Part shown: in pieces, positions 32,646 to 57,086 of the stretch
Layout of the letters: the number at the start of each line of letters is the position of its first letter
Numbering within the stretch: the stretch's first letter is position 1
Origin: Octopus vulgaris
Lineage: Eukaryota
DNA length: 64,000 bases
Reading direction: 5' to 3'
Assembly (NCBI GenBank): GCA_951406725.2
Contig: OX597835.1
Coordinates: forward strand, 48,546,001-48,610,000
Translations under genes and position numbers: made by a program
The notes under the pieces: generated by a model
Seen by the model: the letters and a program-made list of their open reading frames with translations, nothing else
Databases searched by the model: none
What the model was told of the DNA's origin: nothing

Positions 32646-33187
32646 TGTGTGTGTGCATGTTTCAGTGTACGTATATGTTTCTACGCTCGTGCGTGTGTGT
32701 GTGTGTGGCAATGTAGGTTGAAACCACCAGCAGTCAGTGGTCCAATATGTGCGGTTTTGTTACCGATATCTGTTTTAAACAAACAGAATCTAAAGTTTCT
32801 TTTAATATGAATGTTATCGACTTCCTCAAAATTTCTTTTTTTATGCTTTATTATTTTTACTTATAAAAAGAATAGGATCACTATCAATACAAATAGAAAT
32901 GATACGTGTGTGTGTGTGTGTGCATGAATATGTGTATGTATGCTTCTCTGTCTGTCTGTGTTTGTACATATACACACACACATATACATATGTAAACACA
33001 CACATGCATATTTTTGTGTATAAGTATGTGTGTACCTATGTAAGTAGTTCTGTGTGTATGCATGCGTGTATCTATGTAAGTATGTATTTATATACATGTT
33101 TTTTATATTAAAGCTGGAAAAATACCACAAAAATCTGGGGCACAGAATTTCACATTCGCCAAGTAATTGCGATCAAGTCTTGATCAC

Positions 33188-33230
33188 AAATGTCCGACGA
33201 ACGGGAACGTGAAACTCTAAGTAACAGTTT
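33188..33230 (+). ncRNA. Type I hammerhead ribozyme candidate with U4C core, in a short element ending at (TA)n near 33332
   Basis: aaatgt CCGACGA acg-ggaa-cgt GAAA ct-cta-ag TA aca(g)ttt. Stems I, II (GNRA loop) and III all pair. GUA triplet. Confidence 0.7.
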
Positions 33231-33330
33231 TTCGTAAGGTTTTCGCAGCCAAAATAGAAAACCATATTGCTCTAGCCTCGGTATTCGAGTACTAATTTTT
33301 CTACCTTGCTTTGCATTTATATACTAACTC

Positions 33331-33381
<51 letters not shown>

Positions 33382-40222: not shown

Positions 40223-40733
40223 TACACACACACACAAACACACACACACATATATTTATATATATATATGTATGTATGTACATGTATGTATGTATGTACA
40301 GTGGCGTACGTACACTTTGGTCTCTTAGATGTAAGTATATATTTGTCTGTACGACACTATTCTTTTATTCTTTCCTTCTTTCTGTCAGCCCTTTCACGCT
40401 TACTTCGTTCTTTACTTTACTCGTAAGTATGTATGTGTGTGTGTGTGTGTGAGCGTCTGTGTGTCTGTGTGTGTACGCGTATTATATATTTATACATATT
40501 ACCGTAGATGTGCCTATATAGTTGTGATACACTAGCATAAGATATATATTTATTCGTATAACTTTTATTTCTGTAACTTATCTGTATTTGAATTTTTATC
40601 TGAATTATGGCTTGTACTGTAGAGTCCAGCGAAACTAAACATACCTAATTTAAACAAACTTATTTTGCAAATATTTATGGGATTTCAAAATTAAAATATA
40701 GTTTATGGTATTGAACGTTGATAAAGTTATAAG

Positions 40734-40828
40734 GGCCTGATGATTGGGGTGGCATCTTGAGAGGGGTTCCAGGGAAACACGGAGCGGCTTAGGAACCCAA
40801 GGATGTACCTCATGAAACACGTGTAGCC
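40734..40828 (+). ncRNA. Type I hammerhead ribozyme, canonical core, long stem II
   Basis: ggc CTGATGA [t tggggt g gcatctt gagag gggttcc ... ggaaccc a aggatgt acctca t] GAAA cacgtg TA gcc. Palindromic stem III ACACGTGT. Predicted cleavage after 40825. Confidence 0.85.
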
Positions 40829-41093
40829 AAGGAATAAAACAGTAGGTATTTAAAATTAAAATAAAAAATTATTTTTATTTGCTGAGAAGTTGGGGTATAC
40901 TATCTCTATATTAATATATATATATATATAAATTCAAAATGGGACAACAAAACATCCAGATACAAAGAAAACAAGGACGGGTCATTCGGAATTTTCTTTC
41001 CTCAGTCGAGTTCCAGTTTATCTTTGTAATTTCGGCTGGTTATACTCGAGAAACCTACCACATCCAACTAAGTTTCCCGTATGTTAACTATGC

Positions 41094-48999: not shown

Positions 49000-49423
49000 A
49001 GTAGTAGTAGTAGTATTAGTATTAGTATTATCGCACAGATTCTAACGCTGGAGATGTACTACAGTGTCAGTTGTTCACTACCAATGAACTAAGGTAACAC
49101 CTCTTACTTTTCGAGCACCTTCCATAGTATTCGAGCTGTTCCAAGCAGTGCTGTTTTCTGCAAGTGCTCCACCCTTATTGCAGCCCGTATTTGTTCCACG
49201 TATTTATCGAGATTTTTGCTCACAGTTCTCGGGGCTCCGACAATTATTGGTACTACTGCTACCTTTTTCATCGACCACAACTGCTTAACTTCCCAAGCTA
49301 ACCTGTCATATCTTTCAACTTTTCTTTCTTCTTTATCGCATACATTGTTGTTAGCTGGGCATGCTATATCTATGATACAGCATAGTTTGTTTGCTTTCTC
49401 AATTAAGACTATGTCTGGCATTC

Positions 49424-49424
<1 letters not shown>
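48841..49424 (-). mobile_element. Two head-to-tail 3' fragments of a third RLE LINE family in (TTA)n: 49031-49424 (RLE + 3'UTR) and 48841-48911 (3'UTR only)
   Basis: RMPDIVLIEK..IIDIACP..RKVERYDRL..VPIIVGA..LQKTALLGTARIL*. The 70-bp UTR (TCTAACGCTGGAGATGTACTACAGTGTCAG) occurs twice. Confidence 0.88.
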
Positions 49425-49495
<71 letters not shown>

Positions 49496-50527
49496 AAAAT
49501 TGGCGTAACTCTTCACGAAAGTAAACAGGCAATAAGAAAAGCGCGATACGTTTTGTAATAAATTGTTTATTTAACCGTTATCTCAACAATATCTCAACAA
49601 ATCGTCTGTCTTCAGATTCAAAATGTAAAATGAAAACAGCCGCAGATACTCAGAAATTCAAAAGATATCCGAGGAATTCGTGCATTCCCATTTTAGTCCT
49701 TCATCATCAGTTTTCAATTTTCTAACTCGAAAAAGGGAACAGAAAAAAACAAGAAAAAGAAAAAAAAAAGAAAAAAGAATATTTAATCGAACAATTTTTG
49801 TAAATGCGATGAGATTCACCTGCCATTTTACTCATTTCTCCAGGGCGTGCAGTAAGTAATTCACAAATATATTTTATCCTCATGCATTTTGAGGAGCGAA
49901 AGTGTAGCAGATTCAGAACATTTTCTGGGAATATGCAGTATCCGTTGTTCCTCAAAATTGCAGCCGTTTGATGTAAAATATTCAGCAAGTTTTGTCGAAC
50001 TACTGCTATTGTGCCCATACTTGAGCCCATTGAATCTTTTGTTTTATTGTTCTGTTGTACAAATAGCTTAAGTTCTGCTGTGTACACCAAATGGGAATCT
50101 TTACACGTCCTTCTTTCCGTGTAGATCATAACATTTCTGTTATGATTCCTAATGGAATTGACTTGATTCATGTTGTTGCACAACGAACCAGCTCCATGAT
50201 GCATCCTGGTCTTTTAAATTGTTAGATTCACAGTGGAACTGACCATATGATTCCATGCGGAGTAGTGATTCTTATTGGCTATTCGTGATCGGAATTCATT
50301 AGCACTCTTAATTCCATTTTGTATAAATCGTTTTGCATTAGCAGCATACTGTAGAAGATCTTTGCTGTTTACCAAATGCTCTGTCATATTTCTTCTTTCG
50401 TTCCTGCAATTTAAGGGAGATTTGACCGGTATATCAAACGAATCAAAGACCATGTAGGAAGGATCTTCATTGGTTCTTCACATTGAAGTAGTGCTATATG
50501 TGTGTCTAGTGTCTGTGTAAACACATG

Positions 50528-51302: not shown

Positions 51303-51361
<59 letters not shown>

Positions 51362-51390
51362 ATACAATATGTTACATTACTCGGTAGTCA

Positions 51391-51453
51391 AGATAAAACT
51401 CTGAGTTTCAGATGCCGAAGTGGAAATCCACAACACCATCTCTTCGGTTATCT
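51391..51453 (-). ncRNA. Variant hammerhead in the inverted pLTR
   Basis: Reverse complement of 54303-54365. Confidence 0.65.
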
Positions 51454-51648
51454 GGCTATTTGAAAACGTTATGAAAAAATACCGTTAAAAATGAAGGGAA
51501 ATTACTCTGTTATAACTCTGCTTTGCCTGCGTACTTATACATCGCTCGCATTTTTCGTCATAAAAATTATATAAAAATACATAAAAAATATATAAAAATA
51601 TATAAAAATATATAAAATCTTCTTGGGACATAACACAGAAAGCATGTT

Positions 51649-52309
51649 CTATCCGTTTTCTTTAGGGGACCAAAAACGTAACAGAAATTTAGTCACATGT
51701 GGGCATGATCCGAAAAGTTCTGTCCTTGTATTTAGACATGTGGTAGGGTCTAAGCTGCTTTTCCAGATAAGCCATCTCTCCATGTCGCATAAACCGCACC
51801 TTCCGCTGCCGTTAGTATAGGGCTTACATCTGGCCAAAATCTTCCATTGTATGTTATAATCGACACCTTTATCTCTTAAAGACCAAATATGATTGGATAA
51901 TTGTGTCGCTTTTCTTTTGTTCCAGTGCCTAAAGCTCAAAGTGTGGTTATTGAACCTGGTCTTGAAATTACCCTCTGTCAGGCCCACGTATTTCTTCGTC
52001 AAAACGGTGTCTTTAGTGGTTATAGAGTTTACGGTAGCCTCATATATGATGGTCTTGGACATGCAAGCTCCATTTAGCGGGCACAATTCTTTATTCCTGC
52101 ATGAACAGCTGTTTTCTTCTTGTGTTTTTTGTATGTTATGATTGATTATGTTTTTAAAATTGGTAGTTGAACTAAAACTAATTTTTAAATTGTGTCTATT
52201 GAAGAGTTTCCTATAAGCATGGTTAACTGGAAAATGTCTATCTATCAGTGCTAGGAAATATTTACCTATATTGAAGGCCACCTCGGGTGAGTAAGGGGGC
52301 GTAAACCAG
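51649..52309 (-). pseudogene. Inverted partial PLE ORF (Cys linker + GIY-YIG)
   Basis: Translation matches the C-terminal part of the 708-aa ORF. Confidence 0.9.
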
Positions 52310-54107
52310 CACTTTTTTCGGATAAAACCAAGAACTTATACCTGGTAGATAACAGCAAATACACACAACTCTTACACAACAGCATCATTAATAATTATAC
52401 TAAAGCTAGGGCACAGACATATAACGAAATTAATAAAGAAGCTAGCGTCATCGCCGCTAAACTTAAATTAGATAAAAAAATAGAAACCCTCCCCAAAAAG
52501 AGGCCTTTATTACTATTAAAGACCACAAAGAAAACTTCCTTTCCAATCCTAAATGTAGGCTTATCAACCCAGCCAAATCAGAACTAGGGATTATTAGCAA
52601 AGAAATTTTAGATAAAATAAATACGAAAATTAAGAGCGATACTAGGCTAGTGCAATGGTCCAATAGTATAGAAGTCGTAGACTGGTTTAAAGCTATTAAG
52701 AATAAGAAAAAAGCGAGGTTTACACAATTCGATATTGTTGATTTTTATGCCTCTATCTCTAAAGAACTGCTAGATAAAGCCCTAATCTTCGCTAGTGACT
52801 TCATAGAAATTAGTACCAATGATAAGGATATAATCTTCCATGCTAGAAAGACATTACTTTTCAGTGAGAATGCAAAGTGGGTAAAAAACACCGACACGGA
52901 GGGCGCTTTCGATGTGAGCATGGGTTCATATGATGGGGCAGGCATCTGTGATCTAATTGGACTCTTTCTCCTAGATACCTTCAGTAAGACATTCCCTAAC
53001 GTACATTTCGCCATCTACAAAGATGATGCCCTCGCCTTAACAGCTAATACAAATGGACCAGCACAAGATCGTTTTAGGAAGGATATTATCCAGTTAATGA
53101 AACACTTCGGACTTAGTATAACTATAGACACTAACCTGACGGTTGTCAATTTCTTAGACGTTTCCTTAGATCTTAATAATAATATTTATAAGCCTTATAG
53201 GAAGCCCAATGATAGACTAAGTTATATTAATGTAGGTTCATGCCATCCCCCTATAGTATTCAAAAATTTAGTTAAAAATATTAGTAAGAGGATTTCTAGC
53301 CTCTCATCTAATGAGGACATCTTCAATAGCGTTGCCCCAGTTTATAATAAAGCTTTAAAAGATAGTGGTTTTAGCGAAAAAATAAAATATACACCTATCA
53401 CCAGCCCAACAATAAGGAAAAGGAATAATAGAAATAGGAAGGTCATCTGGTTTACGCCCCCTTACTCACCCGAGGTGGCCTTCAATATAGGTAAATATTT
53501 CCTAGCACTGATAGATAGACATTTTCCAGTTAACCATGCTTATAGGAAACTCTTCAATAGACACAATTTAAAAATTAGTTTTAGTTCAACTACCAATTTT
53601 AAAAACATAATCAATCATAACATACAAAAAACACAAGAAGAAAACAGCTGTTCATGCAGGAATAAAGAATTGTGCCCGCTAAATGGAGCTTGCATGTCCA
53701 AGACCATCATATATGAGGCTACCGTAAACTCTATAACCACTAAAGACACCGTTTTGACGAAGAAATACGTGGGCCTGACAGAGGGTAATTTCAAGACCAG
53801 GTTCAATAACCACACTTTGAGCTTTAGGCACTGGAACAAAAGAAAAGCGACACAATTATCCAATCATATTTGGTCTTTAAGAGATAAAGGTGTCGATTAT
53901 AACATACAATGGAAGATTTTGGCCAGATGTAAGCCCTATACTAACGGCAGCGGAAGGTGCGGTTTATGCGACATGGAGAGATGGCTTATCTGGAAAAGCA
54001 GCTTAGACCCTACCACATGTCTAAATACAAGGACAGAACCTTTCGGATCATGCCCACATGTGACTAAATTTCTGTTACGTTTTTGGTCCCCTAAAGAAAA
54101 CGGATAG
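52308..54107 (+). pseudogene. 5'-truncated PLE ORF copy
   Basis: Near-identical to 54897-56697, with a 1-nt C deletion near 52490 and two substitutions I could see (SEK/SEN, TEP/TEL). Confidence 0.92.
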
Positions 54108-54302
54108 AACATGCTTTCTGTGTTATGTCCCAAGAAGATTTTATATATTTTTATATATTTTTATATATTTTTTATGTATTTTTATATAATTTTTATGACG
54201 AAAAATGCGAGCGATGTATAAGTACGCAGGCAAAGCAGAGTTATAACAGAGTAATTTCCCTTCATTTTTAACGGTATTTTTTCATAACGTTTTCAAATAG
54301 CC

Positions 54303-54365
54303 AGATAACCGAAGAGATGGTGTTGTGGATTTCCACTTCGGCATCTGAAACTCAGAGTTTTATCT
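54303..54365 (+). ncRNA. Variant type I hammerhead in the PLE terminal repeat
   Basis: agataa CCGAAGA gatg..(gtgg-attt-ccac)..catc t GAAA ctc-a-gag T T ttatct. 6-bp stem I, near-palindromic stem III, GUU triplet, U4C core and an extra U before GAAA. Confidence 0.65.
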
Positions 54366-54570
54366 TGACTACCGAGTAATGTAACATATTGTATAGATAA
54401 ATTTCCTCTATTTACATAATATTGAGGTCTCTTTCTTTCTTTTGTTATCTTACCGTTTTATCAATAAATCACCTCCCGGACGACGTTATTCTCAACTAAG
54501 AGCTAATACGACCTTTTTGGGATTATCGCCTAACATCGGTTGAGGACTCTCACAAACAAAAGAATCTAAT

Positions 54571-56697
54571 ATGGACGCATATCACATAGATTATTCTATG
54601 AAAAATATACCGATCCCATCAAAGGATTTTTACTCTAAGAAACTTCTGCAAAAAATTACTGATGTAATTAAGCGTATGAGATGGAAGGCTTTCTTTTTTG
54701 ACACAGAAGCGAACACCAAGGAAAACATTTGCTATCGGATAAAATCCAAAAAATTCCCTCCTAGGATTAAAGGCTTAGAAGATTTCGAAGCGGACCTGCT
54801 GAAGATCATGAGCAAAATAAAGTTTCGTAAGTCTTTTAACAATTTCCAACATAAATTGAAGAAAGATATTGATCATATAAAAAGCTCCAAGAAAAAAGCA
54901 CTTTTTTCGGATAAAACCAAGAACTTATACCTGGTAGATAACAGCAAATACACACAACTCTTACACAACAGCATCATTAATAATTATACTAAAGCTAGGG
55001 CACAGACATATAACGAAATTAATAAAGAAGCTAGCGTCATCGCCGCTAAACTTAAATTAGATAAAAAAATAGAAACCCTCCCCCAAAAAGAGGCCTTTAT
55101 TACTATTAAAGACCACAAAGAAAACTTCCTTTCCAATCCTAAATGTAGGCTTATCAACCCAGCCAAATCAGAACTAGGGATTATTAGCAAAGAAATTTTA
55201 GATAAAATAAATACGAAAATTAAGAGCGATACTAGGCTAGTGCAATGGTCCAATAGTATAGAAGTCGTAGACTGGTTTAAAGCTATTAAGAATAAGAAAA
55301 AAGCGAGGTTTACACAATTCGATATTGTTGATTTTTATGCCTCTATCTCTAAAGAACTGCTAGATAAAGCCCTAATCTTCGCTAGTGACTTCATAGAAAT
55401 TAGTACCAATGATAAGGATATAATCTTCCATGCTAGAAAGACATTACTTTTCAGTGAGAATGCAAAGTGGGTAAAAAACACCGACACGGAGGGCGCTTTC
55501 GATGTGAGCATGGGTTCATATGATGGGGCAGGCATCTGTGATCTAATTGGACTCTTTCTCCTAGATACCTTCAGTAAGACATTCCCTAACGTACATTTCG
55601 CCATCTACAAAGATGATGCCCTCGCCTTAACAGCTAATACAAATGGACCAGCACAAGATCGTTTTAGGAAGGATATTATCCAGTTAATGAAACACTTCGG
55701 ACTTAGTATAACTATAGACACTAACCTGACGGTTGTCAATTTCTTAGACGTTTCCTTAGATCTTAATAATAATATTTATAAGCCTTATAGGAAGCCCAAT
55801 GATAGACTAAGTTATATTAATGTAGGTTCATGCCATCCCCCTATAGTATTCAAAAATTTAGTTAAAAATATTAGTAAGAGGATTTCTAGCCTCTCATCTA
55901 ATGAGGACATCTTCAATAGCGTTGCCCCAGTTTATAATAAAGCTTTAAAAGATAGTGGTTTTAGCGAAAATATAAAATATACACCTATCACCAGCCCAAC
56001 AATAAGGAAAAGGAATAATAGAAATAGGAAGGTCATCTGGTTTACGCCCCCTTACTCACCCGAGGTGGCCTTCAATATAGGTAAATATTTCCTAGCACTG
56101 ATAGATAGACATTTTCCAGTTAACCATGCTTATAGGAAACTCTTCAATAGACACAATTTAAAAATTAGTTTTAGTTCAACTACCAATTTTAAAAACATAA
56201 TCAATCATAACATACAAAAAACACAAGAAGAAAACAGCTGTTCATGCAGGAATAAAGAATTGTGCCCGCTAAATGGAGCTTGCATGTCCAAGACCATCAT
56301 ATATGAGGCTACCGTAAACTCTATAACCACTAAAGACACCGTTTTGACGAAGAAATACGTGGGCCTGACAGAGGGTAATTTCAAGACCAGGTTCAATAAC
56401 CACACTTTGAGCTTTAGGCACTGGAACAAAAGAAAAGCGACACAATTATCCAATCATATTTGGTCTTTAAGAGATAAAGGTGTCGATTATAACATACAAT
56501 GGAAGATTTTGGCCAGATGTAAGCCCTATACTAACGGCAGCGGAAGGTGCGGTTTATGCGACATGGAGAGATGGCTTATCTGGAAAAGCAGCTTAGACCC
56601 TACCACATGTCTAAATACAAGGACAGAACTTTTCGGATCATGCCCACATGTGACTAAATTTCTGTTACGTTTTTGGTCCCCTAAAGAAAACGGATAG
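54571..56697 (+). CDS. Penelope-like reverse transcriptase + GIY-YIG endonuclease, intact 708 aa
   Basis: SDKT, CRLINPAKSELG, QFDIVDFYASIS, SMGSYDGA, IYKDDAL, VNFLDVSLDL, YRKP. Linker CSCRNKELCPLNGAC. Endonuclease IIYEA..YVGLTEGNFKTRFNNH..CGLC..E..LNTRTE..CPH. Confidence 0.96.
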   Translation: MDAYHIDYSMKNIPIPSKDFYSKKLLQKITDVIKRMRWKAFFFDTEANTKENICYRIKSKKFPPRIKGLEDFEADLLKIMSKIKFRKSFNNFQHKLKKDIDHIKSSKKKALFSDKTKNLYLVDNSKYTQLLHNSIINNYTKARAQTYNEINKEASVIAAKLKLDKKIETLPQKEAFITIKDHKENFLSNPKCRLINPAKSELGIISKEILDKINTKIKSDTRLVQWSNSIEVVDWFKAIKNKKKARFTQFDIVDFYASISKELLDKALIFASDFIEISTNDKDIIFHARKTLLFSENAKWVKNTDTEGAFDVSMGSYDGAGICDLIGLFLLDTFSKTFPNVHFAIYKDDALALTANTNGPAQDRFRKDIIQLMKHFGLSITIDTNLTVVNFLDVSLDLNNNIYKPYRKPNDRLSYINVGSCHPPIVFKNLVKNISKRISSLSSNEDIFNSVAPVYNKALKDSGFSENIKYTPITSPTIRKRNNRNRKVIWFTPPYSPEVAFNIGKYFLALIDRHFPVNHAYRKLFNRHNLKISFSSTTNFKNIINHNIQKTQEENSCSCRNKELCPLNGACMSKTIIYEATVNSITTKDTVLTKKYVGLTEGNFKTRFNNHTLSFRHWNKRKATQLSNHIWSLRDKGVDYNIQWKILARCKPYTNGSGRCGLCDMERWLIWKSSLDPTTCLNTRTELFGSCPHVTKFLLRFWSPKENG

Positions 56698-56892
56698 AAC
56701 ATGCTTTCTGTGTTATGTCCCAAGAAGATTTTATATATTTTTATATATTTTTATATATTTTTTATGTATTTTTATATAATTTTTATGACGAAAAATGCGA
56801 GCGATGTATAAGTACGCAGGCAAAGCAGAGTTATAACAGAGTAATTTCCCTTCATTTTTAACGGTATTTTTTCATAACGTTTTCAAATAGCC

Positions 56893-56955
56893 AGATAACC
56901 GAAGAGATGGTGTTGTGGATTTCCACTTCGGCATCTGAAACTCAGAGTTTTATCT
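56893..56955 (+). ncRNA. Variant hammerhead in the 3' pLTR
   Basis: Identical to 54303-54365, 2590 nt downstream. Confidence 0.65.
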
Positions 56956-57053
56956 TGACTACCGAGTAATGTAACATATTGTATAGATAAATTTCCTCTA
57001 TTTACATAATATTGAGGTCTCTTTCTTTCTTTTGTTATCTTACCGTTTTATCA

Positions 57054-57086
<33 letters not shown>

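Follow-up and report, generated by a model that had tools for sequence, protein, structure and literature searches.

The 64,000-nt stretch of Octopus vulgaris DNA analysed here (contig OX597835.1; hereafter the window) carries an insertion at 51354–57056 which, judged from its sequence, is almost certainly a Penelope-like retrotransposon (PLE) of the Hydra clade inserted into a (TA)n microsatellite. It is a near-intact copy and an additional member of an already known clade. Its features are listed below in window coordinates.

51354–57056: whole insertion, composed of an inverted 5′-truncated copy and 1.83 forward units, with (TA)n on either flank
51354–52309, minus strand: inverted 5′-truncated copy of 956 nt, matching 53447–54402
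51391–51453, minus strand: third copy of the hammerhead-like motif, with the same sequence as copies 1 and 2 and a core that starts at 51447
52308–54466, plus strand: upstream 5′-truncated copy, equivalent to a pseudo-LTR
54303–54365, plus strand: type I hammerhead-like motif, copy 1, with stems I–III and a predicted cut after 54359
54336–54341, plus strand: hexamer CTTCGG ("anti-core"), complement of the core at 54309–54314, polymorphic at 54337
54439–54457, plus strand: tail segment that in silico pairs with 54270–54276, the 5′ strand of stem I and a portion of the core
54360–56949, plus strand: putative unit-length RNA of 2590 nt between the two predicted cuts
54571–56697, plus strand: intact 708-aa ORF with TERT-like reverse transcriptase (RT), linker and C-terminal GIY-YIG endonuclease (EN)
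56893–56955, plus strand: hammerhead-like motif, copy 2, with a predicted cut after 56949
56950–57056, plus strand: tail, extending ~107 nt beyond the predicted cut and stopping at (TA)n

The unit is 2590 nt long, below 3 kb, and contains a single ORF with an RT. In the encoded protein the RT motif YKDD is located at residue 346, RWK at residue 37 and DKT, replacing DKG, at residue 114. The CxCx5C linker lies at residue 557, with cysteines conserved in all members of a 41-protein alignment. Motif inspection places GIY-YIG at residues 576–598, and the EN domain carries CxxC at 660 and CxH at 691. GxKF/Y was looked for in the protein and is absent, as in the Hydra clade. All Hydra-clade motifs tested are thus present, the clade being defined in the accessible text of Craig et al. 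2021 (PMC8557442) by RWK, DKT, no GxKF/Y, CxCX5C and CxxC/CxH. The Pfam search of the 708-aa protein returned no RT match and a weak, sub-threshold GIY-YIG match (E 0.013; 16.2 bits against a cut-off of 22.6), and no match was obtained in a PDB sequence search. The predicted structure has a pLDDT of 90 and its top structural match is telomerase RT (E 2e-9). Scoring of 7999 candidates yielded 1015 homologues, the best 120 of which are 41–52% identical; a search of viral contigs for relatives returned none (0 of 124 stretches). A non-LTR retrozyme, i.e. a small non-coding tandem unit, was also considered and is ruled out by the 2590-nt unit with its intact RT-EN ORF.

The forward tandem (52308–57056) measures 4749 nt, or 1.83 units, in agreement with the 1.8-unit tandem proposed by an earlier sequence-only reading of this DNA. 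Over ~2160 overlapping nt the forward units show 3 differences (99.9% identity), and the upstream copy carries a 1-nt frameshift near 52490. That reading also held that two copies of the hammerhead bracket one unit. The motif indeed recurs unchanged 2590 nt further on (core at 56899), but the third, inverted copy had been overlooked. The inverted and forward copies are joined via a 2-nt overlap (52308–52309), and the 3′ end of the inverted copy lies ~40–43 nt beyond the predicted cut. Differences between the three copies fit a circular and a multimeric template alike and do not discriminate between them. In four public sequencing runs many copies terminate near the place equivalent to +107, before (TA)n (loose ends at 54459 and 54466). 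The account of PLEs in Craig et al. 2021 (PMC8557442) likewise includes partial tandems as well as an inverted 5′ copy, a tail and (TA)n targets. The octopus element shares with the C-terminal EN+ PLEs of the Hydra clade, as presented there, the unit of less than 3 kb, the single ORF, the protein motifs, the (TA)n target, the partial tandem with inverted 5′ copy, and a post-ORF hammerhead with a 4-bp palindromic stem III.

Copy 1 of the motif has a 6-bp stem I (54303–54308/54360–54365), a C3–A9 core at 54309–54315 and a 4-bp stem II (54316–54319/54342–54345; predicted P ~0.97) whose arm contains an inner hairpin (54325–54336). A single extra pyrimidine, U54346, stands 3′ of stem II before G12. 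It is followed by GAAA (54347–54350), the palindromic stem III (54350–54358) and a GUU site whose last base is 54359. All elements of the hammerhead core (C3–A9, G12–A15.1 and U16.1–H17) are present except for C at position 4 (U4C, at 54310). For comparison, 93 related loci and the octopus window gave 99 descriptor matches, from which removal of duplicates and of motifs whose core or stem III ends were atypical left 67 unique motifs. Position 4 is U in 64 of these 67 motifs and C in three; the window holds an extra U4C motif at 33194. The Hydra-clade motif table in the accessible part of PMC8557442 gives a CTGA core in all 26 rows, unlike the U4C core of the octopus, which differs from that table also by its 31-nt stem II arm with inner hairpin and by the extra pyrimidine. 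By-eye comparison with the accessible record of Hydra-1_Obim shows a different motif and ORF, and we regard it as a separate family. The copy 2 core starts 202 nt past the stop codon, the core-to-stop distance having a median of 147 nt (range 86–525) in 33 hand-picked family loci. The stem III sequence is identical to that of several family members, and an intermolecular stem III duplex is predicted at −7.4 kcal/mol. Together with the unvarying core and stems, these features count in favour of activity.

The Rfam search returned no hammerhead match to the motif, and a family covariance model gave no meaningful score for it. The model covers stem II only and was built from 50 of 53 candidate motifs, all U4; one U4C motif and two near-duplicates were left out. 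As neither the curated nor the family model matches it, the motif is here named hammerhead-like, and since it is atypical (U4C, extra pyrimidine, missed by the family model) its cleavage counts as predicted. Rfam also returned a miRNA match on the minus strand, mirroring the alternative hairpin described below; at 22 bits against a threshold of 93 it is sub-threshold and was treated as chance. In the accessible account of Perreault 2011, U4C considerably lowers activity in vitro while still allowing viroid infectivity. Cleavage is predicted to be weak and confined to the dimer, and the maintenance of hammerheads at the same place across the family argues for some cleavage role. Dimeric PLE hammerheads are treated by Lunse et al., as cited in a review, and U4C variants may already be listed in that work or in the supplements of the 2014 paper discussed below.

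The sequence-only reading proposed that the hexamer CTTCGG in stem II pairs with the core to form an inactive fold, and that this hints at a conformational switch. The hexamer (54336–54341) and the core CCGAAG (54309–54314) are exact reverse complements, as claimed. The hexamer does lie in the long stem II arm, but it overlaps the inner hairpin and the internal loop. The alternative pairing exists as well and is longer than stated: it adds 54302–54306/54343–54347 and three inner pairs, giving a hairpin of ~14 pairs in all. Its dependence on U4C was borne out, the anti-core fold being predicted 7.6 kcal/mol above the ensemble with U4, compared to 2.7 kcal/mol with C4. Shuffling the 31-nt stem II region 20,000 times produced the exact hexamer in 1.3% of cases and some match of at least 6 nt in 1.9–2.3%; the region itself was picked post hoc.

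With six Watson-Crick pairs between stem II and core, the octopus motif is the sole such case among the 67; eleven have four pairs and the rest fewer. The conservation expected among related PLEs did not appear, as none of the 66 other unique hammerheads exceeds four pairs and the three other U4C cores have 3 and 4 (related loci) and 3 (the second window motif, at 33194). These loci are only 35–48% identical in protein, too distant to bear on a young lineage-specific switch. A 6-nt core complement is found within 100 nt of the core in 4 of the 66 other hammerheads. The identical hexamer occurs in loop II of three of the 66, all with U4, and thus cannot act as an anti-core there. Stem II covariation in the family amounts to 63 double changes and is partly circular, because the descriptor selected for pairing. 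On sequence grounds the hexamer match is uncommon yet not beyond chance; it is neither conserved nor tied to U4C.

Folding energies, which are blind to tertiary contacts and protein, give the core/anti-core pairing in segment 54298–54372 a probability of 0.013 (37°C) or 0.001 (20°C); the value is 0.024 for 54280–54400 and 0.0001 in an 800-nt context. Stem II is predicted at 0.9 or above across these three contexts. The anti-core fold of the full motif lies 2.3–3.9 kcal/mol above the ensemble and comes closer only in the 5′ cleavage product. In this product (54298–54359) the alternative hairpin reaches 0.18–0.25, but addition of 38 more upstream bases lowers it to 0.016. When the core and the pairing pattern were preserved and the sequence randomised, core-to-stem II pairing was equalled or beaten in 20.8% of 2000 trials for the full motif and in 10.2% of 2000 for the 5′ product. 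Within the family, the octopus motif ranks 18th of 67 (full motif) and 9th of 67 (5′ product) for such pairing. In the predictions, the anti-core fold is heavily outweighed by other off-folds. A9 pairs with U54346 at a predicted 0.92, and the tail segment 54439–54457 is predicted to capture stem I and the core at ~1.0, blocking the hammerhead fold. This capture is not significant against shuffles (p = 0.06–0.08), and the family shows no enrichment for a tail blocker (0 of 56 and 1 of 56 motifs at p ≤0.05). Stem I is lost in the wider predicted context in 20 of 56 family motifs, and a search past the cut for a distal blocker shared by the family gave none among the 56.

Natural variation was examined by mapping contigs from 4 of 24 public runs on 54050–54700. 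Contig depth is not copy number, and contigs cannot reveal RNA ends, strand or circles, a ligated junction reading like tandem DNA. T54337C was found in all four runs (X1: 101 contigs, 19% of depth; the other runs: 23%, 31% and 15%), T54346C at 34% in X1 and A54368G at 26%. In X11 and X13 the changes at 54337, 54346 and 54368 occur at a common contig depth. These linked variants indicate a sister subfamily. Position 54337 falls in the internal loop of the native arm and in the middle of the anti-core helix. The T54337C contigs begin at 54325, without the core, so that an unchanged core is deduced from the absence of listed variants. In the four runs no variant at 3% or more was seen at 54303–54331 or 54338–54345, and none of the variants at this level was a 16-nt deletion of 54320–54335. 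The three linked variants together lower the anti-core pairing to 0.0001 in the full motif; the broader core-to-stem II measure on the 5′ product drops from 0.25 to 0.13, about twofold. Each of the three variants yields a cleaner predicted fold. Within the element's own copies, conservation of the match also fails, as it is broken by the common T54337C and no partner change was seen.

The proposed conformational switch is therefore not upheld: the pairing is predicted at ~1–2% in the motif and ~0 in context, the null reaches it in 10–21% of trials, it is unconserved and T54337C breaks the match. The anti-core is very probably not a selected switch, and the six-base match is likely a coincidence. 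It is highly unlikely that selection shaped the U4C core and the hexamer into an alternative hairpin silencing the ribozyme, e.g. in the monomer or circle, even though the exact 6-nt match is unique among the 67 motifs (shuffle P 0.013–0.023), the hairpin extends over ~14 pairs in a C4-dependent manner with 0.18–0.25 in the 5′ product, and the linked variants cut the 5′-product pairing only about twofold. By analogy, plant retrozyme and viroid circles are described, in the accessible literature, as blocking their own hammerheads by pairing. The low occupancy of the intact motif and near-zero pairing in wider context speak against such selection, as do the null, the lack of conservation or of any tie to U4C, and the common natural variant. 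A broader form of the idea would have U4C, the ~14-pair hairpin and the tail pairing jointly hold the ribozyme off in the ORF-intact subfamily, RT initiation being coupled to an uncut or circular 2.6-kb template and the sister subfamily being uninhibited; taken as a whole, this is very unlikely. Searches of open-licence papers and bioRxiv found no earlier description of an anti-core for a PLE motif, nor one of an off-state built into a retrotransposon ribozyme.

Other origins for the same features can be envisaged. The hexamer reads as a cUUCGg tetraloop sequence. It could be a relic of a loop that originally closed a short stem II, prior to the insertion of 54320–54335; its match to the core would then follow simply from the core sequence CCGAAG. 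The hexamer adjoins the stem II 3′ strand, removal of 54320–54335 leaves a perfect 5-bp hairpin as read from the sequence, and the identical hexamer caps stem II in L044, L048 and Penelope-6_HM. Against this, the 16-nt deletion is missing among variants at 3% or more and the sister form carries T54337C, so that we consider such an origin doubtful. Equally doubtful is the view that the family's motif has lost cleavage and persists as a structural or inert leftover. The octopus motif lacks the U4 present in 64 of 67 family motifs, has an extra pyrimidine before G12 and obtains no meaningful score from the family model. However, core, GAAA and stems are free of variants at 3% or more while loop positions vary, a pattern that a young family would show as well, and U4C keeps function in vivo in a viroid (Perreault 2011, accessible part). 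It is quite unlikely that the ribozyme of the dominant subfamily is tuned down, with U4C, the A9–U54346 mispair, a stem I mismatch and the tail pairing keeping the template uncut until protein binds. The predicted A9:U54346 pair, the tail capture and the cleaner folds of all three linked variants would fit this, and in the accessible text of PMC11167929 the Poseidon hammerhead cut only with protein, which offers an analogy. The tail pairing is nevertheless not significant and is not enriched in the family, where wider context already costs 20 of 56 motifs their stem I, and three changes in the same direction are not significant.

With some confidence, we consider that the best explanation is a Hydra-clade PLE in (TA)n that carries a motif predicted to cut weakly, in the dimer only, and an anti-core match that is likely due to chance. 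This leaves the nature of its template to be weighed. Cuts after 54359 and 56949 would enclose 2590 nt with the whole ORF, and the arithmetic of the sequence-only reading is correct on this point. The insertion 3′ ends lie ~107 and ~40–43 nt past the predicted cut. RT would thus have copied through the ribozyme on a template RNA that was continuous there. A linear cleaved monomer could not template such ends, which points to a circle or an uncut multimer. In the mechanism we propose, the element's endonuclease would nick AT-rich DNA, and RT would start inside the RNA at two tail positions and then copy through the ribozyme; priming off both nicked strands would generate the inverted copy.

On balance, the template was more probably an uncut tandem or read-through RNA. 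Alternatively, the motifs could cleave as a dimer and the 2590-nt monomer be ligated, after which RT would make more than one turn of the circle and so produce the 1.83-unit tandem. Such a route, which could operate with or without a switch, is possible but less probable. It is consistent with cDNA having crossed the junction, with the 99.9% identity of the units, with the ability of the stem III palindrome to pair between copies, and with the presence of two motifs one unit apart (2387–2496 nt) in at least 5 of the 93 related loci, an arrangement that is thus usual in the family. As a source of tandems, circularisation is an already published idea. Cervera and de la Pena 2014 (PMC4209133) proposed that the tandems of PLEs arise when a cleaved RNA is ligated into a circle and then reverse-transcribed over more than one unit length, a proposal repeated in a review, and circles have been demonstrated for animal retrozymes (PMC7229834, accessible part), which would be analogous. 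A 2026 preprint, as far as accessible, ties animal retrozymes to PLEs. However, the same DNA is expected from an uncut tandem RNA, and the inverted third copy is not explained by a circle alone and needs a further step. Cleavage was dispensable in vitro for the Poseidon element: in the accessible text of Frangieh 2024 (PMC11167929), hammerhead mutants left insertion unaffected and there were no reads at the cut. Moreover, Naiads form tandems without canonical hammerheads (PMC8557442, accessible text), and the U4C of the octopus motif is reported as considerably less active in vitro (Perreault 2011, accessible part). The probability remaining beyond the uncut template and the circle falls to template jumping.

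The octopus motifs resemble the PLE pseudo-LTR hammerheads of PMC4209133, where the same type I motif is found in both repeats with a dimer-forming palindromic stem III and a long helix II. The extra nucleotide is 5′ of stem II in those motifs but 3′ in the octopus motif, and the accessible sections of that paper describe no anti-core or U4C variant. In Poseidon of Anolis (PMC11167929) a tail is defined by two internal RT start sites downstream of the hammerhead, to which the two 3′ ends of the octopus element would correspond, and both elements have an AT-rich target. The clades differ, the octopus ends are ~64 nt apart, unlike those of Poseidon, and the Poseidon ORF starts inside the hammerhead whereas the octopus ATG is 211 nt past the cut. 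Animal non-LTR retrozymes (PMC7229834, accessible text) have the same tandem type I hammerheads, from which the unit RNA is released and circularised. Those units are non-coding and ~170–400 nt long, with circles demonstrated, whereas the octopus unit is coding, 2590 nt long, and its RNA is predicted only.

Published work thus already covers the anatomy, the pair of motifs and the idea of a circle; the new part, the anti-core switch, failed the checks. For the role of hammerheads in Penelope-like elements, this near-intact copy, with its rare U4C core and a pair of natural motif alleles, constitutes usable test material. If the switch were true, it would represent a built-in off-state in a retrotransposon ribozyme. 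If the self-inhibition of the ORF-intact subfamily were true, the natural allele pair would directly test the purpose of the Penelope hammerhead.

Beyond the Hydra-clade Penelope-like element (PLE) under study, the window contains two further hammerhead-like motifs, scored with the covariance model built from 50 related hammerheads, and one short ORF-like stretch.

Other features in the window
33185-33232, + strand: solo hammerhead-like motif with the U4C core (family covariance model, E 0.076)
40728-40835, + strand: hammerhead-like motif with a canonical core (family covariance model, E 0.32)
49104-49532, - strand: short ORF-like stretch

Both motifs are followed downstream by (TA)n, at 33334 and 40915 respectively. 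The solo motif probably represents the 3′ terminus of a PLE that is truncated and belongs to a family other than that of the studied element. In the second motif, stem III is perfectly palindromic and the stem II arm is about 70 nt long. The ORF-like stretch resembles the end of a non-LTR retrotransposon that encodes the restriction-like endonuclease.

Within the studied element, a start codon with a stop directly after it (54379-54384) precedes the main ATG, 20 nt beyond the predicted cut. Further along the tail, segment 54439-54457, placed between both 3′ end positions of the insertion, is predicted to sequester stem I and the core (P ~1). This pairing was not significant compared with shuffled sequences, and pairing of this type was not enriched across related family motifs. 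In public runs X1 and X18, contigs covering the motif and tail (54290-54466) reach tens of times the depth seen at the ORF start, which hints weakly at numerous short fragments from the 3′ end or at a non-autonomous derivative; contig depth does not equal copy number.

Among family motifs, two (L054:1938 and L075:2400) carry a compensated U3-A8 core pair, a variant described earlier in Schistosoma PLEs by Cervera and de la Pena (2014, PMC4209133). Hydra-type PLEs with hammerheads also occur in contigs of bacterial genome assemblies (loci L079-L093), L087 sitting within a 491-kb contig; these are probably animal host DNA that was mistakenly binned.

Finally, runs X11 and X13, whose species labels (organisms B and C) differ from organism A, each yielded one 2255-nt contig across the ORF, with 0 differences from the window in 316 bases compared. 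Such identity may reflect a very young family, closely related species, mislabelling or transfer.
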